Of a DNA stretch of 64,000 nt, positions 3,539 to 37,748 are shown piece by piece. This DNA is from Acidimicrobiales bacterium (GTDB lineage Bacteria > Actinomycetota > Acidimicrobiia > Acidimicrobiales > Bog-793). How positions within the stretch are numbered: position 1 is the stretch's first letter; every line of letters starts with the position of its first letter. Location of the stretch: positions 8,507-72,506 of the forward strand of contig JBKQLZ010000006.1 of the NCBI GenBank assembly GCA_052146895.1, written 5' to 3'. Position numbers and translations under genes: made by a program. The notes beneath the pieces are model-generated. The model saw only the letters and a program-made list of their open reading frames with translations. It did no database searches and was not told the DNA's origin.

Positions 3539-4528
3539 ATGCGAGACCTACGTCGATTCTCCCTATCGCCAGAGACGGTGCGGAAGGTCGCGCTTAGCGT
3601 GGTGATCGCGTACGCCCTCCTCGTCGTTACGGGCGGCGCTGTCCGCTTGACCGGCTCAGGTCTCGGTTGCCCCGACTGGCCCTCGTGCTACCAGCATCGG
3701 CTGGTCGCAGCGCTCTCGTTCCACCCGTTGGTCGAGGACATCAATCGTTTCGCCACGATCGCCGTGAGTGTGTTGTCCATCGCCGCGTGCGTGATCGCGT
3801 TCCTGCGGTCTCCTCGCCGGAAGGACATCTCAATCCCGGCAATCGGGATCCTGGTAGGTCTCGTGGCACAGATCGTCCTCGGAGGCCTCGTCGTCCTGAC
3901 CAAGCTCAACCCTTACCTCGTCGCTCTCCACTTCCTCCTCACGCTTGCGGTTCTCGGCGTCGCGATCGCGTTCTACCACCGCGCTGGTGTCGCCGACAGC
4001 GCCGCTTCCTCGGCACCTGTACCGCTCGTCGCCTCGGATCTCCGTTGGCTCGTGCTCGTGATGATCGGATCGCTCGCCGTCATGACGACCCTCGGCACGC
4101 TCGTGACGGGCTCGGGGCCTCATGCCGGCGGGCCGGGGGCGCGACGGATCCCGATTGCGTTCCACTCGATCGCAGAAGTGCACAGCTCGATCGGCTGGCT
4201 CATCCTCGGACTAGCCGGCGCCAGCGTGTTCGCGTTCCACCACGCACAGGCACCCGAGCGGGTCCAGCGCCTGGTTCGCGGTTACTTCGAGCTCGTGGTC
4301 GTCCAGGGTGCCCTCGGATACACCCAGTACTTCCTGCACGACTCGCCGGCGGTAGTCGAATTTCACCTGGCAGGGGTAGCGGCGCTGTGGATCACGGCGA
4401 TCGGCTTGTACCTCAGCTTGCACGAGCATCCGGTGAACGTCGATGCTGCGCCTAGCTCCGGCACCGAGCCGCAGCAGGAGCCGCTGCTGACACCTGCGCC
4501 TGCGCCGGCGCCTGCGCCGGTTGGATAA
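3539..4528 (+). CDS. ctaA: Heme A synthase (COX15/CtaA family)
   Basis: [12 protein letters not shown] cysteine-pair motif, multiple TM helices with conserved His (HPLVED, ALHFLL, HSSIGW, EFHLAG). Divergent from ctaB. Confidence 0.8.
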
Positions 4529-4835
4529 GCAGGTGACCATCTTCGCCTCAACAGCTCCATCCGCGGTCCAGCGCCCGGAGACCGAGGAGTCCCTCCGCAC
4601 CGAGATGCCGTGGTTGGTGATCGTGTGGAACGATCCGATCAACCTGATGAGCTACGTGACCTTCGTCTTGCAGAAGCTCTTCGGCTACTCCCGGGAGAAA
4701 GCTCACCGGCTCATGATGGACGTGCACACGAAGGGCCGAGCCGTCGTCTCGAGCGGAGCGCGTGAGCGAGCCGAACTCGACGTTTCCAGGCTCCACCAGC
4801 ACGGGCTCTGGGCGACGATGGAGCAGAGCGGGTGA
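4521..4835 (+). CDS. clpS: ATP-dependent Clp protease adaptor ClpS
   Basis: Core [46 protein letters not shown] is a typical ClpS fold sequence. Start codon (TTG 4521 or GTG 4533) uncertain. Confidence 0.88.
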
Positions 4836-4839
4836 CCAG

Positions 4840-5436
4840 GTGATCCGGCGCCGGATCAAGCCGTTGCGTCGCGGGCAGGGCTGTCAGCTCAACTTGCCGC
4901 CGGAGGAACGGGAGCTGCTCAAGATCCTGCCAGTGGAGCTTGTAACGCTCATCAAAGGGCTAGATCCCGGCGCGACACCGCCTGAGAGCATAAGGCGGCT
5001 GTTCCCGCGTGCGTACGTCTCTGACGACGACGCCGAGCAGGCGTTCGCGGCCTCCACGCGTGCCGAGCTCTCGGAGCGGCACCAGCAGGCGCTGGCGACG
5101 CTCGCCGATACGGCTCACGCCACCGCGCTCGACGAGGAGCAGATGGCAGGTTGGATGACCGCACTGAACGACCTGCGCCTCTTCCTCGGTACCGTCCTCG
5201 GGGTCACCGACGACGAAGCGTGGGTCCCGAGTGGGCCACCCGACTCCGAAGTCGTGATCTACCACTACCTGACGATGCTGCAAGCGGAGCTGATCGACGT
5301 GATGGAGCAGTGGCTACCCGAACCCGTGCCAGGGGCAGACGATCTCGCTCCGGATGATCCCTGGGGCGAACCGCTGGGAGGCCTTCGCTGGGACGGCACC
5401 CCCCAGCCGGAGTGGCCGCCGCGCCCCGATCTGTGA
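4840..5436 (+). CDS. DUF2017-like protein (conserved ClpS neighbour in Actinobacteria)
   Basis: Acidic protein immediately after clpS. GTG at 4840 avoids the 74-nt overlap implied by the longest ORF (4762). Family assignment rests on synteny and recollection, not on a motif. Confidence 0.6.
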   Translation: MIRRRIKPLRRGQGCQLNLPPEERELLKILPVELVTLIKGLDPGATPPESIRRLFPRAYVSDDDAEQAFAASTRAELSERHQQALATLADTAHATALDEEQMAGWMTALNDLRLFLGTVLGVTDDEAWVPSGPPDSEVVIYHYLTMLQAELIDVMEQWLPEPVPGADDLAPDDPWGEPLGGLRWDGTPQPEWPPRPDL

Positions 5437-6854
5437 GCGGACCGATGGGCGAACCAGCTGGGTTGCCGCGGATTCTCACGATCATGGGATCGGGCGAGAC
5501 CGCCCCGACAATGGTGAAGGTTCACCGATCAGTGCTCGAGCGTCTCGGCCCACCGCCTGTGCCAGCCGTGCTCCTCGACACCCCGTTCGGGTTCCAGGAG
5601 AACGCCACCGAGCTCGCGCAGCGCGTCGTCAGCTACTTCGCCGAGAGCCTGAGAACGACGATAGAGGTGGCAAGCACCGCCGCTGCAGGTCTCGAGGGTG
5701 GTGCTAGGCCGATCGAGACGGGGGACGACCCGTTCGCGAGCGAGCGTGTCGTGACGAAGGTGCGCGACGCCCGGTACGTCTTCGCCGGACCCGGCTCACC
5801 GAGCTACGCGTTGCGCAAGTGGAAGGGGACGGTCGTGCCCTCGCTCCTCAAGGAGGCGCTGCGGCACGGGGGAGCGGTCACCTTCTCATCGGCAGCGGCG
5901 CTCACGCTCGGGATCAGTACCGTGCCGGTGTACGAGGTTTACAAGGTGGGCGAGGACCCCTTCTGGCTCGAGGGCCTCGATGTGCTGGGTGTCACCGGGC
6001 TCACTGCTGCCGTCATCCCCCACTACAACAATGCGGAGGGTGGGACGCACGACACGCGTTTCTGCTACCTGGGCGAGCGGCGCCTGGCGATGCTCGAGCC
6101 GGAGTTGCCCGAAGGAGCATTCGTGCTCGGGGTCGACGAGCACACTGCGATCGTTCTCGACCTTGACGAGCGCGTCGGGACGATCGCCGGCAACGGGGTC
6201 GTGACGGTTCGAGCTGCTGGTCGGTCGCGCACCTGGGCGACCGGCGAGACCGTGAGCTTCGACGAGCTGGCCTCCGCGGCCGCCGACCTGGCGCGCGGCG
6301 GTGGTAGTGCGGTCACGGCGGCCGGGGATGGGGGTGCGGACGGAGGCGGAGTGGCCGGCGCCGGATCTTCGTCTGACTCCCTCGATGGCGAGCCCGACGC
6401 TGCCCTGGCAGGCGGTGGCGGCAAACCGGGTGAGGACTACCAGGGTTCCCCGCTGCTCGGCGTCGTCCGAGAAAAGGAAGCCGGCTTCTCCGAGGCACTC
6501 GCGGCGCGCGACATGGCAGCGGCGGTGCAGGCGGTGCTGGAGCTCGAGGCCGATCTCACGGCGTGGTCACACGACATCCCGGCGGGCGACGCGCTCGACC
6601 GCGCGCATGCGAGCCTGCGATCGCTGATCGTGGCACTCGGACGAGCCGGAGAGGGCGGCATCCGTGACCCGCGCGAGGTTCTCGGTCCATTCGTCGAAGC
6701 GATGCTGGAGATGCGGCGTAAGGCGCGAGCTGATCGGCGTTTCGACGACGCCGACTCGATCCGCGGCCGTCTGAGCGAGCTGGGGGTAGAGGTGCGGGAC
6801 ACGGCCGAGGGGAGCGAGTGGCTGTTACTTGCGGACTCGTCGAGCTCGTCCTAG
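5433..6854 (+). CDS. Fusion protein: N-terminal S51/class-I-amidotransferase-like hydrolase domain, Gly/Ala-rich linker, C-terminal CysRS-like (DALR-2 plus C-terminal) region
   Basis: N-terminus RILTIMGSGETAP, YVFAGPGSPSY, VTFSSAAALTLG, IPHYNN resembles the peptidase E/cyanophycinase fold. The C-terminal MRRKARADRRFDDADSIRGRLSELGVEVRDTAEGSEWLL matches the conserved tail of cysteinyl-tRNA synthetases. GTG 5433 overlaps the upstream stop (GTGA). Confidence 0.7.
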   Translation: MSGPMGEPAGLPRILTIMGSGETAPTMVKVHRSVLERLGPPPVPAVLLDTPFGFQENATELAQRVVSYFAESLRTTIEVASTAAAGLEGGARPIETGDDPFASERVVTKVRDARYVFAGPGSPSYALRKWKGTVVPSLLKEALRHGGAVTFSSAAALTLGISTVPVYEVYKVGEDPFWLEGLDVLGVTGLTAAVIPHYNNAEGGTHDTRFCYLGERRLAMLEPELPEGAFVLGVDEHTAIVLDLDERVGTIAGNGVVTVRAAGRSRTWATGETVSFDELASAAADLARGGGSAVTAAGDGGADGGGVAGAGSSSDSLDGEPDAALAGGGGKPGEDYQGSPLLGVVREKEAGFSEALAARDMAAAVQAVLELEADLTAWSHDIPAGDALDRAHASLRSLIVALGRAGEGGIRDPREVLGPFVEAMLEMRRKARADRRFDDADSIRGRLSELGVEVRDTAEGSEWLLLADSSSSS

Positions 6855-6924
6855 GCAGGCGTCCGGACGCGGGACCGCTGGTTCCGGATCGACCTTTTGG
6901 CGCTGGTAGCCTCGATCGGCTCTG

Positions 6925-6997
6925 GCCCCCATCGTCTAGCGGCCTAGGACGCTGCCCTTTCAAGGCGGTAACACGGGTTCGAATCCCGTTGGGGGTG
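6925..6997 (+). tRNA. tRNA-Glu (anticodon TTC)
   Basis: Cloverleaf folded by hand: acceptor GCCCCCA/TGGGGGT, anticodon loop CTTTCAA, T-arm ACGGG-TTCGAAT-CCCGT. CCA is not encoded. Confidence 0.9.
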
Positions 6998-7018
6998 CTC
7001 ACCGTTGGGGGTGCTCAC
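6986..7018. repeat. Perfect tandem duplication (2 x 16 bp, ccgttgggggtgctca) of the tRNA-Glu 3' end
   Basis: 6986-7001 and 7002-7017 are identical. The first copy is the T-stem/acceptor 3' half of tRNA-Glu. Confidence 0.9.
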
Positions 7019-7071
7019 TGTCTTCCCTGATAGAGACGTTGTACCTCTTCGCTGATACTCAGCGTCTGCTG

Positions 7072-7320
7072 TCAGCTGACCTTTGCCTCGGAGACAACCC
7101 ACGAGACGCTGCGGCCAACCGCGGCGGCGTAACGGGCGAGCGTAGACAGCCGTACGTCGCGATCACCTTGTTCGATGCGAGCGACCACCGACTGAGAAGA
7201 ACCCATTCGCGCCGCCACGACCGTCTGGGACAGACCCTGAGTGCACGGAGTCGTCGAGCGTCCGCCGGCGACCAACTCCAGACAAGTAGGCCAGGAAAGC
7301 GCCGCGTCGCTGCCATCCAC
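7072..7320 (-). CDS. XRE-family helix-turn-helix transcriptional regulator (small)
   Basis: HTH segment GLSQTVVAARMGSSQSVVARIEQGDRDVRLSTLARYAAAVG. The N-terminal part of the 172-aa ORF is Arg-rich filler, so GTG at 7320 was taken as the start (uncertain). Confidence 0.6.
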   Translation of the reverse strand: MDGSDAALSWPTCLELVAGGRSTTPCTQGLSQTVVAARMGSSQSVVARIEQGDRDVRLSTLARYAAAVGRSVSWVVSEAKVS

Positions 7321-7447
7321 CCCAAGCGAAAAGGTCTTTCGACCCTGTAAGCTGCCAGGCTGCCCCTTTACGCTTCGGTTACGAACGGCGCGAGCAGTCC
7401 CTGCCACACAGGGATAGCCGGGTGGTCGAACGAGAGAGGAGCGGCGC

Positions 7448-8680
7448 GTGGCGCCTGAGGAAGCCGAGTCTCGTAGAGGCGAACGGCGAACCAGATGGGA
7501 GCAGTTTCTGTTCAGCTGGTTCGCCCTGCCCGGATCACTCCTCGCCGCCCTCCTTCTTGGCGCCCTCATGATGGTGCTGCTTAACGCCAACCCCCTGACC
7601 GGATATCACGCCCTGTTCGACGGCGCCTTCGTTGGGAACTACGCCCTGGGTGCCTCGGCGGTGAGGGCGGCTCCCCTCCTGCTCGTCGCCGTCGGAATCT
7701 GCATCTCGTTTCGTGCCAACCTGTTCAACATCGGCGGCGAGGGTCAGCTGGCGATGGGCGGCCTCGCCAGCGCGGCCACGGCACTGACGCTCCCCAACCT
7801 GCCGAGCATCGTGCTCATCCCTCTCGTGCTCCTCGCCGGCGCGGCCGCCGGTGCTATCTGGGGCGCCATTCCCGGCGCCTTCAAGGCCTATTACAACGTC
7901 AACGAGATCTTGAGCACGATCATGCTCAACCTCGTCGCCGTCCAGGTCATGAACTACCTCCTGGCGGGTCCCATGGTGGACACTACCCAGAACTCCACCT
8001 ACGGCCTCATCCCAGAAACGAGGCTCCTACCGCACAACTCGTGGTTGCCCATCCTCATCCGCGGAACCCAACTCCACCTCGGTGTCGCCATTGCCATCGT
8101 GATGGCGCTCGCCGCCTACGTGCTGCTCTGGCACACGAGCCTTGGCTTCAGGCTGCGCGCCGTCGGCTTGTCCCGTGAGGCGGCCACCTATGCCGGTATC
8201 AAGGTGCGGCGCACGCAAGTTCTGGCCATGACGCTCAGTGGGGCAATGTGCGGCCTCGGCGGTGCCCTGCTCGTCTTCGGAAGCATCTCGCACCGGATGG
8301 TGACCGACGGGAGCCTGACCGGCTTCACCGGATCTGACGGGTTCAACGGCATCGTCGTAGCGCTCTTCGGCGGGTTGAGCCCGCTCTGGAGCGTCCTCTC
8401 GGCCTTCCTCTTCGGCGGGTTGCTCACCGGCGGCGACGCCCTGCAAGTGGCAACGGGCGTACCGGCCGACATGGTGACCACCCTCGAGGGACTCGTGGTG
8501 ATCTTCGTCGTATCGCTCGAGTACGGGCGCCGACGCGCCCGAGTCGGCGCGCTGATCCCACGGACCACCAAGGCGACCGGTTCGCCACCGGGGGACGAGG
8601 CCGAGCGCAGCCTTGTCGCCGCCGGACACGTCGCCGGACGCGCTCCGAGCGACGCCGGGCAGACAGGGGGTGAGTCGTGA
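7448..8680 (+). CDS. ABC transporter permease (BMP/nucleoside-sugar type, YufP-like) with C-terminal cytoplasmic extension
   Basis: Polytopic membrane protein of the RbsC/BPD_transp_2 type (NIGGEGQ, multiple TM). First gene of a permease-permease-SBP-ATPase operon. Confidence 0.85.
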   Translation: MAPEEAESRRGERRTRWEQFLFSWFALPGSLLAALLLGALMMVLLNANPLTGYHALFDGAFVGNYALGASAVRAAPLLLVAVGICISFRANLFNIGGEGQLAMGGLASAATALTLPNLPSIVLIPLVLLAGAAAGAIWGAIPGAFKAYYNVNEILSTIMLNLVAVQVMNYLLAGPMVDTTQNSTYGLIPETRLLPHNSWLPILIRGTQLHLGVAIAIVMALAAYVLLWHTSLGFRLRAVGLSREAATYAGIKVRRTQVLAMTLSGAMCGLGGALLVFGSISHRMVTDGSLTGFTGSDGFNGIVVALFGGLSPLWSVLSAFLFGGLLTGGDALQVATGVPADMVTTLEGLVVIFVVSLEYGRRRARVGALIPRTTKATGSPPGDEAERSLVAAGHVAGRAPSDAGQTGGES

Positions 8681-9609
8681 GCCACTTCTTCACCTACGCC
8701 ATAATCACGGCCACTCTGGCGTCCGCCTTCGCCCTCGCCAGCCCATTTCTCGTGGCTGCTCTTGGTGAGACCATGGGGCAACGCAGCGGGGTCATCAACC
8801 TCGGTGTGGACGGGATCATGCTCCTGGCGGCCTTCGCTACCTACTACACGGCCCTTCAAACTGGCAGCCTTCTGTTCGGCATCCTCGCCGGTGCTGGCAC
8901 CGGGATGGTGATGGGCGTCGTCACGGCCTTCATGTCGGTCACCTTGAAGGCCCAGCAGGGCATCAGCGGAATCGGCGTCTACCTCTTCGGCCTCGGCCTG
9001 AGTGACCTGCTCTTCCTCAAGCTCGTGGGCACACCCCTGCCAATCTCCGAGCTGAGACCGCTCGACATTCCGCTTCTCGACCGCATACCGGCCATCGGGC
9101 CGATCCTCTTCGAGCAGACGATCCTCGTGTACCTGGCATTCCTCCTCGTCCCGGTGTTCACCTTCGTCCTCAACCGTACGACCTTCGGCCTCAAGATCCG
9201 CTCAGTCGGGGAGAACCCTGCGGCTGCCGACACCGTCGGCATCAGCGTGTCCCGCATACGTTGGTCGGCGGTCCTCATCGGCTGCACGATGGCCGGCCTC
9301 GCGGGAGCCACCCTCCTCCTCTACGACGGGATCTTCATGGAGAACCTCACCCAGAGCGAGGGCTTCATCGCCGTCGCGCTCGTCTACTTCGGCGCCTGGC
9401 GCCCTGCGGGCGTCATGGGGGGCTCCGTCCTCTACGGACTGGTGATCGCCGTCGTCCTCTCGTGGAAGTCGCTCGGCATCATCCCGCTCAGCGCGTCTGA
9501 CCTCGCCGCCACGGCGCCCGCCGTGGTCACGATCCTCGTCCTGTTGCTCGTGGCCCGCCGCTTCCGCCAGCCGGCCGCCCTGGGCAAGCCCTACGAGAGA
9601 GGAGCTTGA
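8677..9609 (+). CDS. ABC transporter permease (YufQ-like)
   Basis: Second polytopic permease (GVINLGVDGIM). Start overlaps the upstream stop by 4 nt. Confidence 0.85.
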   Translation: MSHFFTYAIITATLASAFALASPFLVAALGETMGQRSGVINLGVDGIMLLAAFATYYTALQTGSLLFGILAGAGTGMVMGVVTAFMSVTLKAQQGISGIGVYLFGLGLSDLLFLKLVGTPLPISELRPLDIPLLDRIPAIGPILFEQTILVYLAFLLVPVFTFVLNRTTFGLKIRSVGENPAAADTVGISVSRIRWSAVLIGCTMAGLAGATLLLYDGIFMENLTQSEGFIAVALVYFGAWRPAGVMGGSVLYGLVIAVVLSWKSLGIIPLSASDLAATAPAVVTILVLLLVARRFRQPAALGKPYERGA

Positions 9610-9721
9610 TCCCTTGACACGCCAGCATCCTCCCGACTCGAGGTTTGGCCCTAAGACGGCCGCAACTTGGAGAAACGCAGCTCGGATCCAACCAAATAGA
9701 GACAACCGAAAGGAGAACACA

Positions 9722-10741
9722 ATGCATGCACATCTGACCAAGAAGGTCGCTGTGCTGCTTGTTGCGCTCGGTTTGACGCTGGCCTCGGCGGCCTGCGGCA
9801 ACAGCAACTCAAGCAGCACGACGACTTCGTCCCCTTCCTCGTCCGGGCCAAAGGTCTTCAAGGTCGCCCTCGTCGCCCCGAGTGCCACGAATGACCTGGC
9901 TTTCACGGAGTCGATGTACAACGCCCTCGAGGGCCTGAAGAAGTCCGAGAACCTGCAGATCTCGGTGTCGGCCAACGAGTACGTGGTCTCCGACGCCGCC
10001 AACGTCATCCGACAGTACGCCGTCGACGGCTACAACCTCGTAATCGCCCACGGGTCTCAGTACGGCTCGACGATCGAGGCGCTGGCCCCTCAGTTCCCCA
10101 AGGTGTCCTTCGCCTGGGGCACGGCCGGCTCGACGTTCGGAATGCAGAATGTGTTCGCCTATGAGGCGAGCTCGAACGAGGGCGGCTACGTGCAGGGCTA
10201 CATGGCAGCCATGCTCAGCAAGTCACACGTGCTCGGAATCATCGGGCCAATCGAGACCGGCGACGCCAAGCTGTACGTCGACGGCTTTGTCGCCGGAGCG
10301 AAGGCGTACGACCCCACGATCACGGCCAACCCCGTCTACACAGGGTCGTTCAGCGACGACAGCCTGATGGACACTGCCGCCAAGACCTTCGTGTCCGACG
10401 GTGCCGATGTCCTCACGGGCAGCTCGCAGTCGGTTGTCGGAGCTATCGGCGTCGCGTCGGCCGATCACATCCCGTGGTTCAGCACGCAGTGGAGCCAGGC
10501 CACCCTCGCACCGACCGAAGTCGTGTCGGCGCAGGTGTACAACTGGACGCCCGTCCTGACTCAGATGATCACGGAGATCCGTGGGGGCAAGCTGGGCAAC
10601 GCCACTTACGTCATCGGGCTCGGCAACGCCGGCGAGAAGATCGTCTTCAACCCCGGTTTCCCGCTGCCCACATTTGTGAAGACCGAGGCGCAGAAGCTCA
10701 TCACGGAGATCACCAACGGGACCCTCACGGTTCCGCAGTGA
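9722..10741 (+). CDS. BMP-family ABC transporter substrate-binding lipoprotein
   Basis: Signal peptide plus lipobox (LTLASAAC), Ser/Thr linker, Bmp/PnrA-like body (KVALVAPSATNDLAFTES, GPIETGDAKLYVDGF). ATG at 9722 chosen over the longer ORF start. Confidence 0.85.
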   Translation: MHAHLTKKVAVLLVALGLTLASAACGNSNSSSTTTSSPSSSGPKVFKVALVAPSATNDLAFTESMYNALEGLKKSENLQISVSANEYVVSDAANVIRQYAVDGYNLVIAHGSQYGSTIEALAPQFPKVSFAWGTAGSTFGMQNVFAYEASSNEGGYVQGYMAAMLSKSHVLGIIGPIETGDAKLYVDGFVAGAKAYDPTITANPVYTGSFSDDSLMDTAAKTFVSDGADVLTGSSQSVVGAIGVASADHIPWFSTQWSQATLAPTEVVSAQVYNWTPVLTQMITEIRGGKLGNATYVIGLGNAGEKIVFNPGFPLPTFVKTEAQKLITEITNGTLTVPQ

Positions 10742-10770
10742 TCCGAGCGTGACAGGGTAACGAGGCCAAC

Positions 10771-12339
10771 GTGGTAGCCACCAGCCCTGCGAACAGAGCG
10801 ACGGCTGATCCGGGGGAGGCTCGACTCCTCCTCCGGATGAGCGGCATCACGAAGCGCTTTCCCGGCGTGCTCGCCAACGACGGCGTGGACTTCGACGTGC
10901 GCGCCGGAGAGGTGCACACGCTGTTCGGGGAAAACGGAGCCGGCAAGAGCACGCTCATGCGCGTCCTCTATGGCCTCTACCGTCCCGATTCCGGCGAGAT
11001 CCGCATCAAGGGCGACAGGGTGAACATCTCGTCGCCCGCGTACGCGATTCGCCACGGTATCGGAATGATCCACCAGCACTTCATGCTCGTGAACACCCTC
11101 ACGGTGGCCGAGAACGTCGCTCTCGGCCTTAAGTCCTCCCGGGGTCCGCTCACGGACCTGGACAAGGTGGCGCTGCGACTCGAGGAGCTGGGCAAGAGGC
11201 ACGGTCTCGAAGTGGACCCGCGGGCGCTCATCTGGCAGCTCTCGGTTGGGGAGCGCCAGCGGGTCGAGATCCTGAAGGCGCTCTACCGCGACGTCGACCT
11301 GCTCGTCCTCGACGAGCCCACCGCGGTCCTCACCCCCCACGAGGTCGACGACCTCTTCCAGGTCCTCCGCCAGCTCGCCGCGGGCGGGCGTGGGCTCGTC
11401 TTCATCTCCCACAAGGTGAACGAGGTGCTGGAGCTTTCCGACCGCATCACGGTTCTTCGAGCCGGCAGGCGGGTCGGTACCGTCTCACGGGCGGACGCCT
11501 CCCGAGACCGGCTCGTCGAGATGATGGTGGGGCACGACCTGGCCCCTGACGTTCGACCTGGCATGGCCGCCGCCGGCGAGAGACGCCTCGTCGTGACGGA
11601 CCTCAGGGTGATGGGGGACCGCGGCCAGGAAGCGGTGCGAGGGCTCGACCTCGAGGTCGACGCCGGCGAGATCGTCGGTATCGCCGGCGTGTCGGGCAAC
11701 GGCCAACGAGAGTTCGCCGAGGCCGTGGCGGGCATCCGTCCTCACGCCAGTGGATCCATCCTCCTCGGCGGCAGAGAGGTGGCGGGCGCCTCGGCGGCAA
11801 CCGTGCGCTCCGCCGGGCTTGCCTATGTCCCGGAAGAGCGCATGCGAGACGGGATCGTGCCCGATTTCACGGTCGCCGAGAACCTCCTGCTCGTTGACAA
11901 CCACGACCCGGCCTTCGCACGGCTCGGCTTCCTGCGCGCCCGGGCGATCCGGCGCCACTGCCAGGAGCTGGTCGACGACTTCGCCGTCAAGACGCCGAGC
12001 CTCGACACGCCCGCCCGGAACCTCTCGGGCGGCAACATCCAGAAGCTCATCATGGCCCGCGAGCTCTCCGGGCGCCCGCAAGCTCTGCTCGTAGCCCAGC
12101 CGACGCGGGGCATCGACGTCGGGTCCGCCCAGTACATCCACCAGCGCCTCGTAGAGCAGCGCGACGCCGGCACGGCCGTGCTGATCATCTCGGAGGACCT
12201 CGACGAGGTGATGTCGATCTCTGACCGGATCCTGGTGATGTACGAGGGCAAGATCATCGGTTCGGCCGACCCGCGTTCGACGACCCGCGAGGCCGTCGGG
12301 CTCATGATGGCAGGCGTCCGAGCAGCCGAGACGTCGTGA
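10771..12339 (+). CDS. ABC transporter ATP-binding protein with duplicated ATPase domains
   Basis: Two NBDs: GENGAGKST/LSVGERQRV/LVLDEPT and a second half with LSGGNIQKL/ISEDLDE. Start could be ATG 10837. Confidence 0.9.
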   Translation: MVATSPANRATADPGEARLLLRMSGITKRFPGVLANDGVDFDVRAGEVHTLFGENGAGKSTLMRVLYGLYRPDSGEIRIKGDRVNISSPAYAIRHGIGMIHQHFMLVNTLTVAENVALGLKSSRGPLTDLDKVALRLEELGKRHGLEVDPRALIWQLSVGERQRVEILKALYRDVDLLVLDEPTAVLTPHEVDDLFQVLRQLAAGGRGLVFISHKVNEVLELSDRITVLRAGRRVGTVSRADASRDRLVEMMVGHDLAPDVRPGMAAAGERRLVVTDLRVMGDRGQEAVRGLDLEVDAGEIVGIAGVSGNGQREFAEAVAGIRPHASGSILLGGREVAGASAATVRSAGLAYVPEERMRDGIVPDFTVAENLLLVDNHDPAFARLGFLRARAIRRHCQELVDDFAVKTPSLDTPARNLSGGNIQKLIMARELSGRPQALLVAQPTRGIDVGSAQYIHQRLVEQRDAGTAVLIISEDLDEVMSISDRILVMYEGKIIGSADPRSTTREAVGLMMAGVRAAETS

Positions 12340-32222: not shown

Positions 32223-32297
32223 GGACCTGTGGTGCAGCCTGGAGTGCACGCCGGCCTGTCAAGCCGGAGGTCGCGGGTTCAAATCCCGTCAGGTCCG
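32223..32297 (+). tRNA. tRNA-Asp (anticodon GTC)
   Basis: Acceptor GGACCTG/CAGGTCC, D-stem GTGC/GCAC, anticodon stem CCGGC/GCCGG with loop CTGTCAA, T-arm GCGGG-TTCAAAT-CCCGT. Confidence 0.9.
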
Positions 32298-32368
32298 CCC
32301 ATTCGTCGTCAGGTGCCCAGCTGACGAGCGCCTTTCTCATGACGCGGTACGCTCTCGGGCGACCACTA

Positions 32369-32441
32369 GGTCGGGTAGCTCAGTTGGTAGAGCGCGCGCC
32401 TGAAAAGCGCGAGGTCACCGGATCGATGCCGGTCCCGACCA
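32369..32441 (+). tRNA. tRNA-Phe (anticodon GAA); integration target of the adjacent islet
   Basis: Acceptor GGTCGGG/CCCGACC, D-arm GCTC-AGTTGGTA-GAGC, anticodon loop CTGAAAA, T-arm ACCGG-ATCGATG-CCGGT (unusual A at position 54). Confidence 0.85.
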
Positions 32442-32442
32442 C
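32397..32442. repeat. attL: 46-bp direct repeat (3' half of tRNA-Phe)
   Basis: cgcctgaaaagcgcgaggtcaccggatcgatgccggtcccgaccac is identical to 37703-37748. Confidence 0.9.
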
Positions 32443-32467: not shown

Positions 32468-32540
32468 TTTCGCGTCTAATTTTGTCGTTCGTCCAAGTGC
32501 TCGAAACAGGGCAGGACGCGCAAAAGACGCGAAAGACGCG
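32468..32540. promoter_or_regulatory. Cluster of AGACGCG(A/C)AA-type repeats inside the attL arm (putative integrase arm-type sites)
   Basis: Inverted copy atttcgcgtct (32468-32478). Direct copies ggacgcgcaaaagacgcgaaagacgcg (32514-32540). The same motif recurs at 37548-37585. Confidence 0.45.
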
Positions 32541-32676: not shown

Positions 32677-33831
32677 ATGGCCGAGCCAAAGCGACTTCCG
32701 AGCGGACGCTGGAAGGTCCGCTACCGGGACCCATTGGGGCGCCCGCGAAGCAAAGTGTGCAACACGAAGGGCGAGGCGCGCGCCTACGTCGAGGAGATCG
32801 GTCACGCCGCGCGTCATCGCGAATGGATTGCTCCCGAGCTCGGACGGATGCTCCTTGCCGACTGGGTCGCGAAGTACATGTCCACCGTCGTCCATCTCCG
32901 TCCGACGACGGTCTGCCTCTACGAGCGGGAGTTCGAGCACATCCTTCGACGCTTCGGTCAGACGCCACTGATCCAGCTCGAGCCGCTCGCAATCCAGGCG
33001 TGGCTCGCCGAGCTTCTCGCGGGCGACATGGCCGCTTCTTCGGTCCATCGAAAGTACCGACTGCTGCGCCGGACCCTCCAAGTAGCAGTGGAGAAGGGAG
33101 TCATTGCCAAGAACGCTTGCAACAGCGTCCAGCCGCCGCACGTGGAGCTGAACGAGATGCATTTCCTCCTTCCCGAGCAGGCCGTCGCACTCGCCGAGGC
33201 CATCGGCCCCTGGTACCGGACGTTCGTCTACACCGCGCTGGAGACGGGCATGCGCTGGAGCGAATTGGTCGGCCTTCGACGCTCCGGGGTCAACCTGTTG
33301 CATCGCAGCATCGCTGTCACCGAACAGCTCGTGTTCATCGCCGGCGACCCGACGACCGGACGAGAGAAGCGATGGGTTCGACAGCGACCGAAGACGCGGG
33401 CCGGTGTGCGATCGATCACCATCTCGCGCTTCCTCACCGAACGCCTGCAGGAGCAGCTCGCGGAGCGCTCCCAGCCGGGACAGGATGGACTGGTCTTCAC
33501 CAACCAGCGCGGTAACGCGATCGGTGGTTCGATCTTCAACAAGCGGCACTGGCAGGCCGCCCGAGCGGCCGTCGGAGTCCCTGACCTCCGCTTTCACGAC
33601 CTTCGCCACACGGCGGTCGCGCTGGCGATCGCCCAGGGCGCTCACCCGAAGGCGATCCAGCGGCGCATGGGTCACTCGACCATCAACATGACCCTTGATC
33701 GGTACGGCCACCTGTTCCCCGAGTTGGACGAGCAGATCGCCAAAGATTTGGACGGCGTTCTTCGCATTGCCTACTCGGCTCAACCGGATCGAAGTGCCGT
33801 CTCGACCCTCTCCCGAGCAAACGCTGAGTGA
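32677..33831 (+). CDS. Tyrosine-type site-specific recombinase (phage integrase family)
   Basis: N-terminal SAM-like domain (RLPSGRWKVRYRDPLGR), catalytic region GMRWSEL, HDLRHTAVALAI, HSTINMTLDRYGHL. RBS gggaggag upstream of ATG 32677. Confidence 0.9.
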   Translation: MAEPKRLPSGRWKVRYRDPLGRPRSKVCNTKGEARAYVEEIGHAARHREWIAPELGRMLLADWVAKYMSTVVHLRPTTVCLYEREFEHILRRFGQTPLIQLEPLAIQAWLAELLAGDMAASSVHRKYRLLRRTLQVAVEKGVIAKNACNSVQPPHVELNEMHFLLPEQAVALAEAIGPWYRTFVYTALETGMRWSELVGLRRSGVNLLHRSIAVTEQLVFIAGDPTTGREKRWVRQRPKTRAGVRSITISRFLTERLQEQLAERSQPGQDGLVFTNQRGNAIGGSIFNKRHWQAARAAVGVPDLRFHDLRHTAVALAIAQGAHPKAIQRRMGHSTINMTLDRYGHLFPELDEQIAKDLDGVLRIAYSAQPDRSAVSTLSRANAE

Positions 33832-33986: not shown

Positions 33987-34673
33987 ATGGCTCAGTCGCA
34001 GGTAGAGACACATACGGCGGCTGTGGTTGCGAGCGTGCGAGCGAAACTCGGTCGTCGAGCTACTTGGCCCAAGTTTCCGGGCGGCTACCCCGGCGACATC
34101 GAGAGCGCCCTCATTGATGCCGTCTTCTCCTCACGCTATGCATACGACACCACGTACGGCCGAGGTCTCGGACCGAAGATGGCCCTTTGGCGCCAAGGCC
34201 GCGTACGCGGAACGAACGATCCGTCTCTTGGGGCACTCATCAGAGATATCGCAGCTAACGGACCCGCGTCCTGGGCTACCGCACATTTCACGATGCATAT
34301 TTCGGGACGGGGTAAATCCAAGCGACTCAAAGCCGAAGTCGTATTCGAGGCGGCGCACGCCCTTCGATGGCAGGGGTTCGATGTCGCCGCGGATGTAACT
34401 CCTGCAAGGCTTTATGAATTCTTTGACATCTTGCAAGCAGTCGCCGGCATCGGCCTTCCGACGGCTCGATACATGTCAATGCTTCTTGGTTTCAAAGAAG
34501 TCAAGCCCGACCGGATGATCCACCGTTTTATCCACAGCTCTACCGGAGAATGGGTTGGTCACGCCAAAGCGATCGTAATAGCACGAATCACGACCCGATC
34601 CTCAGGGGAGGGCCGCTCGCGTGACGAAAGAAAGATCAGCGCGAATGCTGCGCTTAGGCGGCTCACCGGATGA
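33987..34673 (+). CDS. Hypothetical protein with helix-hairpin-helix (EndoIII/AlkA-like) motif
   Basis: VAGIGLPTARYMSMLLGFKEVKPDRMIHRFI parallels LPGVGRKTA...P.DTH..R of HhH-GPD glycosylases, with no Lys at the EndoIII position. Lower-GC gene inside the islet. Confidence 0.55.
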   Translation: MAQSQVETHTAAVVASVRAKLGRRATWPKFPGGYPGDIESALIDAVFSSRYAYDTTYGRGLGPKMALWRQGRVRGTNDPSLGALIRDIAANGPASWATAHFTMHISGRGKSKRLKAEVVFEAAHALRWQGFDVAADVTPARLYEFFDILQAVAGIGLPTARYMSMLLGFKEVKPDRMIHRFIHSSTGEWVGHAKAIVIARITTRSSGEGRSRDERKISANAALRRLTG

Positions 34674-34797
34674 CGCACGGCTCGCCAACAAGGAGTTCCA
34701 CGGAACCTCGTGGGCTCATCACAAGCATACGGTCGACAACCCGACATGAGGCGTCATTGCCGAGGGACGCGTCCCCGGCGCCGAGTAGAAATCAGCT

Positions 34798-35334
34798 GTG
34801 GAAGAACCTCTCCTGTATATCTTCGACGCCCTCAAGGTTCCCTATGGGCTGCTCTCATCGGAAGAATCGCGGATGCGGTCGGCGGCGTCTCAGCTACTGC
34901 GTCGAACTCCAGTAGCTGTGAACCTCCTGCGGATCGAGGAGGACCCAAAGAGTCAGATGACTGGCAAGCTGTGGGAAACGCTCGAGCCGATGTTGGACAT
35001 CGCCGAATGCGTAATCACCTCCGTCGCCGAGGCCCTGGGTGAAGGCGCGCTCGATCCACTCATCGGCGGTTACCCGAATCCGAATCGAGCTCGTCCCCTG
35101 GACTCATTGCCCGAGTTGCAGCAACGGATCATTGAAAGAGTCGGACCGGCGCCTGGTTGGGAAGAGGCTGTCGAAACTCTTGACGATCTCTTCAAAGAAG
35201 CCGAGCATGATCCGACTGTCCTGCCAGAGGGGCTGAAAGCTGGGCCGTGGCCGACCATGATCATGTGGCAACTCATCGCCGAACTTTGCCGTTTGGCTGA
35301 TCGTCCTGGCTGGCCGATAGCTGATAACAAGTAG
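34798..35334 (+). CDS. Hypothetical acidic helical protein (islet cargo)
   Basis: 178-aa ORF on the same strand as the HhH gene. No recognisable motif. Coding-like composition but lower GC than the host. Confidence 0.45.
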   Translation: MEEPLLYIFDALKVPYGLLSSEESRMRSAASQLLRRTPVAVNLLRIEEDPKSQMTGKLWETLEPMLDIAECVITSVAEALGEGALDPLIGGYPNPNRARPLDSLPELQQRIIERVGPAPGWEEAVETLDDLFKEAEHDPTVLPEGLKAGPWPTMIMWQLIAELCRLADRPGWPIADNK

Positions 35335-35429
35335 TGCCGCGACCGGTTACCTGCGCCGTGTGAGCAATGTCCAAGCCTGGCCCGACTCACGTTGGGCGTC
35401 ACGGGGCTCGCTTCCATTCACCTATCTGC

Positions 35430-36158
35430 TCAATTACGCAGTTGGGTCCTTCCTGAGGACCCGCGGCGGTGTAGCTGGGCCTCGATCCAGTGGCGAACGT
35501 CATGTTCGACCTCGTCCGCCGTGCGAGCGGCATCTATGACTGTGGCCGTCGGTATCTCGCTCGCGGCTGCCACCAGGGTGCTGTTGAATTCGACACACCA
35601 GTCGATGCGTGCAGCGCCTCGCCGAGGGTCGCGGCCGGTGCGGCGTGCGAGCAGCACGTCAGGTGGGCAGGTCAAGCACAAGAAATGCACCGAGTCGAAG
35701 TAGCTGAGGAGGTCTGCGTTCGCGAGTATCTGTTCAGGCAGCATGACAGCGAAGTACACGACTACGACGTCGTTCTGGGCGAGTTCGTGAGCGAGCCGCA
35801 TCCAGGTCCGCCAAAAGGCAGGGTAGTCATCGTTCGATGCGCTGATGAGGTCTGCACCGAGGATGTCAGTGTCGAGAAGAATCGCGCCGCGGATTGTTCC
35901 TGCGAGCCGAGCACAGAGCGTGGACTTGCCGATACCGGGGGTGCCGATGACGATCAGCAGGGGCGGCCGGATGAAAGGGCGCTCGTCGTCGCAATGCGGG
36001 CACCGCAGCACGCCGCCAACCGGGGGAATTTGATCGGGCCAGACGCTGTCAGGCAAGGCGAGCCCGCGTCCGCAGGCCTCACATGTGAATGGCACACCTC
36101 CATCATGTCGCCAAGACGAGGTCAGAGGCTGGCTCGCCACCCACTTCAAGCAGCGCAA
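35430..36158 (-). CDS. Zinc-ribbon plus P-loop NTPase/kinase-like protein (islet cargo)
   Basis: CEACG-x22-CPHCD zinc ribbon followed by Walker A GTPGIGKST, LLDTD, and hydrophobic Walker-B-like VVVVYF. Size and layout resemble small-molecule/nucleotide kinases. Confidence 0.65.
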   Translation of the reverse strand: MRCLKWVASQPLTSSWRHDGGVPFTCEACGRGLALPDSVWPDQIPPVGGVLRCPHCDDERPFIRPPLLIVIGTPGIGKSTLCARLAGTIRGAILLDTDILGADLISASNDDYPAFWRTWMRLAHELAQNDVVVVYFAVMLPEQILANADLLSYFDSVHFLCLTCPPDVLLARRTGRDPRRGAARIDWCVEFNSTLVAAASEIPTATVIDAARTADEVEHDVRHWIEAQLHRRGSSGRTQLRN

Positions 36159-36218
36159 ACATTGTCTGGCGCAGTACTAGCCGCCTTCGAGTTCCGACGC
36201 GGGCGTGCGAGGTAAGCG

Positions 36219-36710
36219 TTACTGGGCTGCCTCATCGACGTTAAGGACCCACGGCTGCGGCGCCGCGGTGACGGGATTCGTGTAGGTGAGGGTAAGAGTG
36301 AACGGCACGGTTTGCCCTGGTTGGACGTTATTCAGCTGGAAGTTGCCCGTGCCGTCGCCGAGCGCGTTGGCGTTGTTCTGGTCGCCAACGCTGACGATGT
36401 AGCTATTCGCGGTCTTGTCGCCGTTCGTCAAGGTCCCGCTGACGCTGGCCGCAAGTCCGCCGGCATTGAGGACAGCGCTGGTGAAGCGGATCGAGCAATT
36501 CGACAAGTTTCCTGCACACGGGCCTGTTGGGAGCGTCGTCGTGGTGGTAGTCGTCGCTGCGGTGGTAGTCGTCGCTGCTGTCGTAGTCGTGGCCTTCGGC
36601 ACGGTCGTCGTTGTCGGGGCGACCGATGTGGTGCCGCAGGCTCCCCCCAATATCGCTACGGCCGCGAGGCCGACCCACCCGGCGTACCTGCGAATTCGGA
36701 GGGAGACCAC
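36219..36710 (-). CDS. Thr-rich lipoprotein with C-terminal beta-rich domain (islet cargo)
   Basis: Signal plus lipobox AILGGAC and a poly-Thr/Ala linker that includes a perfect 18-bp tandem duplication (36543-36578). The C-terminal domain is rich in T/N/G/V. Confidence 0.6.
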   Translation of the reverse strand: MVSLRIRRYAGWVGLAAVAILGGACGTTSVAPTTTTVPKATTTTAATTTTAATTTTTTTLPTGPCAGNLSNCSIRFTSAVLNAGGLAASVSGTLTNGDKTANSYIVSVGDQNNANALGDGTGNFQLNNVQPGQTVPFTLTLTYTNPVTAAPQPWVLNVDEAAQ

Positions 36711-36813: not shown

Positions 36814-37173
36814 CTACGACGGGCGGCGCACCCTGACGAGATGGCCGCGAACAATGACAATGCAACCTCGGAACTCTTCGAGGTCGTGATGCGTCGTCAG
36901 CGAGGACAGCGTTGAGAGCACCGACGACACTGCCTGACTGTCGGGGCGCAGGACAACGATCCCACCATGCGATCCGGGCGGATAAGAGCGCACGTCCCCG
37001 AATCCGCGATCGAGGGTGACGAGCACTCGATCCTCTGAGCTGGCAGCCGCAAGAACTGCCGGGTCGTCGCGACCAGCGAGGCCTTCACCGATCACCGTCT
37101 CGACGTCATGGCCGATCTCCGTGAGGACCTGACCAGCGCTCGCCGGGAGGTTTTCGTCGAGCTTGACCTTCAC
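36814..37173 (-). CDS. DUF5615-family (PIN-like) putative toxin
   Basis: MKVKLDENLPASAGQVLTEIGHDVETV...DRVLVTLDRGF. 4-nt overlap with the upstream DUF433 gene. Confidence 0.8.
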   Translation of the reverse strand: MKVKLDENLPASAGQVLTEIGHDVETVIGEGLAGRDDPAVLAAASSEDRVLVTLDRGFGDVRSYPPGSHGGIVVLRPDSQAVSSVLSTLSSLTTHHDLEEFRGCIVIVRGHLVRVRRPS

Positions 37174-37412
37174 CCTTGGGTCGGGTCGAGCGGCATGATC
37201 TCGTCACGAGCGAGCGCCGCTGCGTAGGCGAGCGCGGCATGGACCACTCCTTGGGGCAAGGTCGGGTACTCCTTGCGCAACGCATCCTCGCTCATGCCTT
37301 CCGCCAAGCAATCCAGCACGACGGTCACCGGAACGCGGGTGCCACGGATCACCGCCTGGCCGTGCAGCACGGCCGGGTCCGATGTGATCAAGTCGAGAAG
37401 CTCCGTAGCCAT
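37170..37412 (-). CDS. DUF433-family putative antitoxin
   Basis: ITSDPAVLHGQAVIRGTRVPVTVVLDCLAEGMSEDALRKEYPTLPQGVVHAALAYAA. ATG at 37412. Confidence 0.8.
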   Translation of the reverse strand: MATELLDLITSDPAVLHGQAVIRGTRVPVTVVLDCLAEGMSEDALRKEYPTLPQGVVHAALAYAAALARDEIMPLDPTQG

Positions 37413-37547
37413 GTCACCATGATCGCGCCTGAGCGAGCACACTGCTCTGTCGTCGGCTCGTGCTAGTAAGGACGATCTCGACGCGGGCCGATGGCACCGC
37501 CGGCGAACGCCAAGCGGTCCGTACCGGTCGCAAAGCGCGGTCCAGAA

Positions 37548-37585
37548 GGACGCGGAAAAGACGCGCGAGGACGCGAAAAGACGCG
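37548..37585. promoter_or_regulatory. Cluster of GGACGCG/AAAAGACGCG repeats inside the attR arm (putative arm-type sites)
   Basis: ggacgcggaaaagacgcgcgaggacgcgaaaagacgcg shares its core with the 32514-32540 cluster. Confidence 0.45.
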
Positions 37586-37702: not shown

Positions 37703-37748
37703 CGCCTGAAAAGCGCGAGGTCACCGGATCGATGCCGGTCCCGACCAC
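37703..37748. repeat. attR: 46-bp direct repeat identical to the tRNA-Phe 3' half
   Basis: Base-for-base identical to 32397-32442. Flanks diverge immediately on both sides. Confidence 0.9.

Follow-up and report, generated by a model that had tools for sequence, protein, structure and literature searches.

A mobile islet of 5.3 kb sits at a tRNA-Phe gene in a 64-kb stretch of DNA (the window, that is, the whole stretch analysed here) from an Acidimicrobiales metagenome-assembled genome, and its four cargo genes, which we call p1 to p4, are probably a mosaic of independently acquired genes rather than a functional module, with p1 a member of a rare, defence-type family of glycosylase-like proteins that is probably decayed in this copy. 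The locus tags of p1, p2 and p3 run consecutively, and all three are listed as hypothetical proteins. A first-pass annotation, made from the sequence of the window, had taken the four genes together for a candidate novel defence-type module; all four open reading frames (ORFs) were found where it had placed them and on the same strands (Table 1), and the module itself did not survive comparison with related loci.

We compared about 30 related loci drawn from metagenomes, genomes and plasmids. The p1 loci comprised ten obtained by contig look-up, nine from species-representative genomes, one viral contig and two plasmids, and three p2 loci and six p3 loci were available. When all islet proteins were searched by tblastn against the loci fetched by then, no locus contained relatives of two of the four genes: p2, p3 and p4 were absent from the p1-relative loci L001–L019, p1, p3 and p4 from the p2 loci, and p1, p2 and p4 from the p3 loci, and p4 was never found beside a relative of p1, p2 or p3. 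Three p1 loci that came later (L029–L031), examined by annotation and not by tblastn, show no p2, p3 or p4 relative among their features. The first-pass annotation had proposed looking for co-occurrence of p1, p2 and p3 across genomes and had staked the module on finding it. Because the genes co-occur in none of the fetched loci, the four-gene module fails by this measure, and not even a two-gene combination was seen there.

Database searches, likewise proposed at the outset, did not recover a known system either. A PADLOC scan of the islet proteins gave no confident match for any of the four, the best values being 0.007 for p1 with the OGG model and 0.002 for p3 with mad8, the latter through the P-loop only. 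Across Pfam, NCBIfam, PHROGs and PADLOC, p3 alone reached a cut-off (Pfam AAA_33) and otherwise returned only P-loop noise, and the matches of p1 (PADLOC OGG), p2 (a HAMP model) and p4 stayed below threshold.

The GC content at third codon positions (GC3) is 0.60 in p1, 0.63 in p2, 0.72 in p3 and 0.78 in p4, with 0.79 in the integrase gene and 0.82–0.88 in the host flanks. In addition, p3 lies in a block (35332-36181) with 87% DNA identity to the metagenome contig L024. The block starts exactly at the p2 stop codon, and this sharp edge suggests a recombination joint. Because the GC3 values differ and the p3 block is discrete, the four genes appear to have been acquired separately. It is highly improbable that all four genes, or just p1 and p2, either by themselves or joined by p3, constitute a new multi-gene anti-phage system in which the glycosylase marks invading DNA and the NTPase or kinase acts as its partner. 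The idea draws on the adjacency of the genes on a small tRNA-borne islet with a toxin–antitoxin pair, on the spacing of p1 and p2 (124 bp apart, in the same direction and both of low GC3) and on the presence of both their families in defence-rich islands. It conflicts with the absence of any co-occurrence in the fetched loci and with the separateness of the p3 block. Furthermore, the gene after the closest p1 relative (60% identity, L003) encodes 385 aa and is unrelated, p2 relatives stand directly after an integrase or a tRNA end with no glycosylase beside them, and the window p1 is without its base-recognition motif, as described below.

The p1 family is very rare, with 18 protein clusters among 5.8 billion, and its relatives from named genomes and plasmids are all from Actinomycetota. 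A phage collection contained no p1 match, and viral contigs yielded one relative, in a restriction-modification context. The alignment of the 18 members has seven invariant residues (G154, Y162, L166, G168, K173, D175 and F181), and in the family profile the elements G154-I-G ... K173-P-D175 align with the same elements of OGG2, EndoIII and AlkA. The first-pass annotation had recognised an EndoIII/AlkA-like helix–hairpin–helix (HhH) motif in the C-terminal half of p1, GIGLPTARYMSMLLGFKEVKPDRMIHRF (34446-34529); the invariant residues, the profile alignment and the structural search all agree with it. Against the PDB, the family profile placed OGG2 (9o02/9o00, E 0.025–0.03, and 3fhg) first, followed by 3-methyladenine glycosylase, EndoIII and AlkA; the single p1 sequence had no match among PDB sequences. 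AlphaFold modelling and Foldseek comparison, as had been suggested, gave a p1 model with a predicted local distance difference test score (pLDDT) of 84.6 and a predicted template modelling score (pTM) of 0.75, whose best 50 PDB matches were solely HhH-GPD glycosylases (OGG1, Mag1, MjaOgg), at a template modelling score (TM-score) of about 0.5 and E 2e-3.

Conventional profiles barely register the family. Pfam HhH-GPD matched neither p1 nor any of the 18 members (two weak HHH_5 matches, E 0.1), and p1 found nothing in Pfam, NCBIfam or PHROGs. The PADLOC OGG model, which we take to be of the Cap11 type on an assumed provenance, was touched by 11 of the 18 members, with a best value of 5e-5 and the window p1 marginal. 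Of the hallmarks of the HhH-GPD superfamily, p1 thus shows the hairpin with its Asp and, with a moderate match, the two-domain all-helical fold, and stays below the Pfam gathering score. Judged from the structural model, the p1 family has an HhH-GPD glycosylase fold, and by sequence it would stand nearest to the 8-oxoguanine glycosylases of the OGG2/AGOG type and to Cap11, an OGG-like protein of the type IV cyclic-oligonucleotide-based anti-phage signalling system (CBASS). At the position of the catalytic Lys of OGG2 (GLGMKEA), the window p1 has Pro and the other members Ala, Thr or Pro; because the HhH lysine is absent, the p1 family, if active, would be monofunctional.

Of about 17 distinct loci with p1 relatives, at least 12 have a recognised defence gene or a PADLOC candidate no more than 8 kb away, a count made without a formal background control. 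The neighbours include AbiEii with STAND/TPR ATPases (L001), McrBC with GmrSD (L002), a BrxL-like protein with a Schlafen domain together with a GIY-YIG-like gene (L003), Shedu (L008), a NACHT protein (L012), PDC-S14 with VapBC (L013), QatC with a UDG-like gene (L014), an McrB-like ATPase with two methylases (L019), a type III restriction-modification-like Mod/Res pair (L029), Gabija (L030) and AbiEi/AbiEii (L031). The link between the HhH protein and a defence setting, drawn in the first-pass annotation from the islet, is therefore borne out at the level of the family. The defence character that it had extended to the cargo as a whole holds for the p1 family in this sense and does not hold for the p3 kinase or the p4 lipoprotein, for which we saw no defence link.

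In four places (L001, L006/L007, L008 and L012; Table 1), a PDC-S54 protein of 429–479 aa (PADLOC E 4e-83, full length) that carries a D...ECK PD-(D/E)XK motif is encoded immediately upstream of the p1 relative with a 3-nt spacer. PADLOC lists PDC-S54 as a candidate that consists of one protein; the actual system may comprise two genes. A literature search on PDC-S54 found no paper. The gene upstream of the p1 relative in L003 was considered as a PDC-S54 partner and ruled out, since it shares 23% identity and resembles a tyrosine recombinase. In L002, the gene of the glycosylase family (7457-8146) lies between McrBC and a GmrSD-type gene, and its end overlaps an Exo_endo_phos gene (ExoIII/APE family) downstream. 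Both this arrangement and the one with PDC-S54 have the look of an operon.

Two of these neighbourhoods recall known arrangements. The L002 region (3823-10886) resembles a base-excision-repair pair of glycosylase and apurinic/apyrimidinic (AP) endonuclease set in a type IV restriction neighbourhood. In L014 (4349-7731), a distant member of the p1 family adjoins QatC (QueC-like, E 2e-58) and a gene resembling the UDG superfamily (E 3.5e-4, short of the Pfam cut-off). This setting is reminiscent of the way QueC and OGG are paired in type IV CBASS, and of the link between Dag glycosylases and 7-deazaguanine.

The window copy of p1 departs from its family at the C terminus. A C-terminal LDHAIW (or LEHAIW, LDHAMW or LDHNVW) is present in 17 of the 18 members, including those at 25–27% identity, and aligns in the profile with the DxxxW of OGG2; the window p1 is the sole member without this motif. 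Its similarity to the closest relative, P0002 (60% identity), ends at nt 34586 (residue 200); the ~28 residues that remain, ITTRSSGEGRSRDERKISANAALRRLTG, bear no relation to the family. The missing motif was found in no other frame and nowhere else in the window, which rules out a frameshift. The flipped base is bound by Asp194 and Trp198 in OGG2 and by Asp218 and Trp222 in AGOG. The Asp takes the structural place of OGG1 Gln315, which hydrogen-bonds N1 of that base, the Trp stacks on the base, and OGG2 truncated at its C terminus no longer excises 8-oxoguanine (PMC3397491). In the defence glycosylase Dag1, the D184A and W188A mutations abolish defence (10.1101/2025.10.29.685425). Because the DxxxW base-recognition motif is lost, the window p1 is, by analogy with these enzymes, most likely a decaying, inactive remnant, in which recombination at about nt 34587 would have removed the DxxxW helix.

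Decay appears to be common in the family. In L016 (7971-8554), the p1-family copy is interrupted and adjoins an integrase, and in L030 (6965-7722), on a Mycobacterium lentiflavum plasmid, the copy beside Gabija is split into three short coding sequences (CDSs).

That the window p1 is still a working single-gene defence glycosylase, whose replaced C-terminal helix alters substrate recognition and does not abolish it, seems doubtful. Its ORF is intact and identical on 5 contigs, the HhH hairpin, K115, K173 and D175 are kept, AlphaFold predicts a C-terminal helix at residues 210–227, and Dag-type glycosylases do function as single genes. However, that helix has a pLDDT of 50–59 and lacks an Asp/Trp pair, none of the 17 other members has lost the motif, not even those at 25–27% identity, loss of the equivalent residues inactivates Dag1 and OGG2, and the interrupted and split copies show that the window p1 is not alone in its decay.

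For intact members of the p1 family we propose the following scheme. A modified or non-canonical purine of invading DNA would be flipped into the C-terminal DxxxW pocket, and its glycosidic bond would then be cut with the invariant Asp that follows the HhH hairpin. Being monofunctional for want of the HhH lysine, the enzymes would leave abasic sites, at which a coupled nuclease, or else the AP endonucleases of the host, would then cleave. Candidates for the coupled nuclease are the upstream PDC-S54 PD-(D/E)XK protein, in four places, and the downstream ExoIII/APE-family protein, in one. Since a lysine-less glycosylase is here coupled to a nuclease, a two-step attack on DNA would fit.

A mobile-element-borne repair, regulatory or counter-defence enzyme, for instance one with the activity proposed for Cap11, removal of base adducts or deazaguanine conjugates, or one that protects the incoming DNA of the element, is an unlikely alternative role for the family. 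The weak sequence link of the family is indeed to the Cap11-type OGG model, and Cap11 has been proposed to be a negative regulator (10.1101/2025.04.06.647259). One p1 relative lies near a QatC (QueC-like) gene, another belongs to a group of small genes that lie upstream of the MobF relaxase on a plasmid of Gordonia, and p1 relatives often adjoin integrases. However, no CD-NTase or TGT partner was seen in any locus, the neighbours are overwhelmingly defence genes and not genes for conjugation or replication, and the operon coupling to PDC-S54 or to an ExoIII-family nuclease suits an attack on DNA better.

Among known systems, the p1 family is functionally most like Dag, and structurally and by sequence most like OGG2 and Cap11. 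Dag1–Dag17 are single-gene HhH-fold defence glycosylases directed against phages with 7-deazaguanine DNA, invisible to sequence searches and found in mobile, GC-poor regions (Getz et al., bioRxiv 10.1101/2025.10.29.685425). The context and predicted fold of the p1 family match this description: its members are small proteins of about 200–230 aa, mostly encoded by single genes, with an HhH-superfamily fold that ordinary sequence searches miss; they occur on mobile elements or in defence islands and in regions of lower GC, as p1 itself does (GC3 of 0.60 versus 0.82–0.88 in the flanks); and, except for the window p1, they carry a C-terminal Asp-x3-Trp that in Dag1 (D184/W188) lies near the flipped base. 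The p1 family differs in belonging to Actinomycetota and in having a subclade that is operon-coupled to the PD-(D/E)XK nuclease PDC-S54, and we liken it to Dag by description, not by sequence comparison.

OGG2/AGOG proteins (MjaOgg 3KNT, SsoOgg 3FHG and 9O00) are the best PDB profile matches of the p1 family, are of similar size and share with it the order of HhH hairpin, catalytic Asp and, near the C terminus, DxxxW. In contrast to them, the p1 family has neither the catalytic Lys of the hairpin nor the conserved C-terminal Lys, its E-values are just 0.03–0.25, and its genes are accessory and island-borne, not core repair genes. The window p1 is without two OGG2/AGOG features, the HhH catalytic Lys and the C-terminal Asp-x3-Trp.

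Type IV CBASS has the OGG-like Cap11 among its accessory proteins (10.1101/2025.04.06.647259). The PADLOC OGG model, presumed to be of the Cap11 type, is the sole defence-database model touched by the p1 family, and in both cases OGG-like proteins would have been recruited to defence loci. They differ in their partners: no CD-NTase, Cap9 (QueC) or Cap10 (TGT) stands beside any p1-family member seen, apart from the one QatC-type gene of L014, and no CBASS partners were found in the window or in the related loci whose neighbours were examined. Last, Brig1 and Brig2 share with the p1 family the logic of a lone glycosylase, which in their case excises modified phage bases (Nature 2024, PMC11078745), but have a UDG fold instead of the HhH fold.

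Several observations weigh against reading the cargo as a mosaic that holds a decayed defence-type glycosylase. The unusually low GC3 common to p1 and p2 makes their joint arrival possible, and only three contexts of the p2 family were readable, one of them uninformative. The defence association comes from the uncontrolled count given above, and L011, L015, L017 and L018 show no recognised defence gene. The sequence links between the p1 family and known glycosylases are weak (E 0.007 to 5e-5, with no Pfam HhH-GPD match), the Foldseek TM-scores of p1 reach just about 0.5, and the activity of the family is argued from sequence, fold model and gene context. Dag1 is bifunctional, with an essential HhH lysine (K118), whereas monofunctionality is expected of the p1 family. 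The truncated p1, being identical on 5 contigs, is stably kept and could retain a function or have gained one.

In a variant of the joint-arrival idea, p1 in its truncated form and p2, which is just as poor in GC, would have entered the islet as a pair not seen before, p2 would stand in for the lost C-terminal function or regulate it, and the p1 family would be a new Actinomycetota branch of glycosylase immunity in which a lysine-less OGG2-like glycosylase and a dedicated nuclease (PDC-S54 or ExoIII-family) carry out a two-step, modification-dependent restriction; we regard this combination as very unlikely. The mosaic with a decayed p1 is the reading that we keep in what follows.

The first-pass annotation had described p2 as acidic and helical, and the analysis agrees: the protein has 30 Asp+Glu versus 17 Lys+Arg, and its AlphaFold model is an all-helical bundle (pLDDT 76.8). 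A first search returned the window protein only, as for an ORFan; exhaustive HMMER searching then disposed of that idea with 11 homologues at 32–47% identity among 1.84 billion representatives, sharing the motifs ALGVPxGLL, RxAAAQLLRRTP and GxLDPxIGGYP. No relative was found in the metagenome scan or among viral contigs, phages and plasmids, the fold had no structural neighbour in the PDB or BFVD, and the family had no match in PADLOC. The family profile (residues ~73–135) matches the poly-HAMP protein Aer2 (4i3m, E 5e-6), though p2 is small and soluble. A HAMP assignment was set aside, as Pfam supports it with a single weak, sub-threshold match in 1 of 12 members.

In L022 (1-1463), the p2 relative directly follows an integrase and is itself followed by FRG, Metallophos/HATPase and HepT-MNT genes. 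In L023 (1-714), it directly follows an apparent tRNA 3′ end (translation RGFDSRRPL), and a TIR protein, Shedu, an integrase and an excisionase come after it. In these two informative contexts the p2 family sits at the edge of defence-laden integrative islands. For this family, a role in defence and one as a backbone, accessory or counter-defence protein are equally likely.

In p3, the zinc ribbon and the kinase-like P-loop of the first-pass annotation are both present, with the correction that the cysteine pairs are 23 residues apart and not 22. Pfam AAA_33 matches at 1.6e-6 (28.9 bits versus a cut-off of 27) with the motif GTPGIGKST, and the family profile matches BH3686 (2bdt) at 4.6e-9 over 130 residues, as well as PSTK and UMP-CMP kinases. 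With BH3686-like/AAA_33 kinases (2BDT), p3 shares the arrangement of Walker A, Asp and lid; it differs in its N-terminal CxxC...CxxC zinc ribbon and in adjoining integrases and transposases. The family is large, with at least 238 clusters at 60–82% identity; the metagenome scan for p3 gave one 2-kb locus only, and viral contigs gave only remote P-loop matches. In the loci collected for p3, its relatives have integrases, transposases, a SAM methyltransferase or a BFN nuclease as neighbours, and in no case a recognised defence gene. By its sequence, p3 would be a widespread zinc-ribbon P-loop kinase cassette carried beside mobile-element genes.

The start of p3 is uncertain between 36158 and 36095, of which the GTG at 36095 (221 aa), as called by NCBI, is the likely one. 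Between 36095 and 36158 the frame stays open upstream of the usual MPFTCE start of the family, and the translation from 36158 is conserved in L024, with 81% identity over all 242 residues.

The fourth gene, p4, has the signal peptide with a Cys and the Thr-rich linker that had led to its description as a Thr-rich lipoprotein. It matches NCBIfam FxLYD_dom at 0.005, below the cut-off, and no relatives were found in the PDB or among plasmids.

The islet is a mobile tRNA-Phe integrative island. A perfect 46-nt direct repeat delimits it (Table 1) and encloses seven genes: the integrase, p1 to p4, and a DUF433/DUF5615 toxin–antitoxin pair whose adjacent genes overlap by 4 bp. The tRNA gene, the repeats and the Pfam matches thus confirm the small tRNA-borne islet with an integrase and a toxin–antitoxin pair that the first-pass annotation had described. 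The GC content of the islet is 62%, compared with 65.5% across the whole window. The target belongs to a tandem of tRNA-Asp and tRNA-Phe (32223-32442), of which the islet duplicates only the tRNA-Phe 3′ end. A 19-nt motif, AGGACGCG(C/G)AAAAGACGCG, occurs once near the left end of the islet, ~70 nt inside it (32513-32531), and twice in tandem ~120–150 nt inside the right end (37547-37565 and 37568-37585), and these copies are candidate arm-type binding sites of the integrase. A promoter and terminator scan of the islet gave nothing above chance expectation. Taken whole, the islet is an ordinary mosaic.

Table 1 Features of the islet, in window coordinates, and operons of p1 relatives with PDC-S54, in the coordinates of the locus named.
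Feature	Position	Strand	Basis or detail
tRNA-Phe (GAA), integration target	32369-32442	+	ARAGORN
Left direct repeat copy (attL core)	32397-32442	+	3′ 46 nt of tRNA-Phe; repeat family D1
Tyrosine integrase	32677-33831	+	Pfam Phage_integrase 1.3e-21 and SAM-like N-terminal domains
p1, HhH-GPD-fold OGG2/Dag-like glycosylase-family protein (predicted), 228 aa	33987-34673	+	ACLPQS_16050
p1 HhH hairpin and putative KPD catalytic-Asp segment (G154 to F181)	34446-34529	+	Alignment, profile versus PDB
p2, 178-aa acidic all-helical protein	34798-35334	+	ACLPQS_16055
p3, zinc-ribbon and P-loop (AAA_33-type) kinase	35430-36158	−	ACLPQS_16060
p4, probable lipoprotein, Thr-rich linker, weak FxLYD-like C-terminal domain	36219-36710	−	
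DUF5615 (PIN-like) toxin	36814-37173	−	Pfam 3.8e-19
DUF433 antitoxin	37170-37412	−	Pfam 1.8e-20; start checked
Right 46-nt direct repeat copy (attR core)	37703-37748	+	100% identical to tRNA-Phe 3′ end
PDC-S54 and glycosylase-family operon, L001	6708-8687		
PDC-S54 and glycosylase-family operon, L006	3297-5276		
PDC-S54 and glycosylase-family operon, L008	5132-7240		
PDC-S54 and glycosylase-family operon, L012	6555-8684		

For experiments, the islet is a poor choice for cloning as a four-gene system, and the intact relatives P0002 and P0013 and the L012 operon are better test objects than the window copy of the glycosylase. The p1 family joins the HhH-fold glycosylases that are carried in defence islands, and its coupling to a nuclease is possibly a new twist. 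If the intact members are active, anti-phage defence by glycosylases, represented so far by Brig and Dag, mostly in Proteobacteria, would reach into Actinomycetota, and a coupled glycosylase–nuclease design with PDC-S54 would be indicated.

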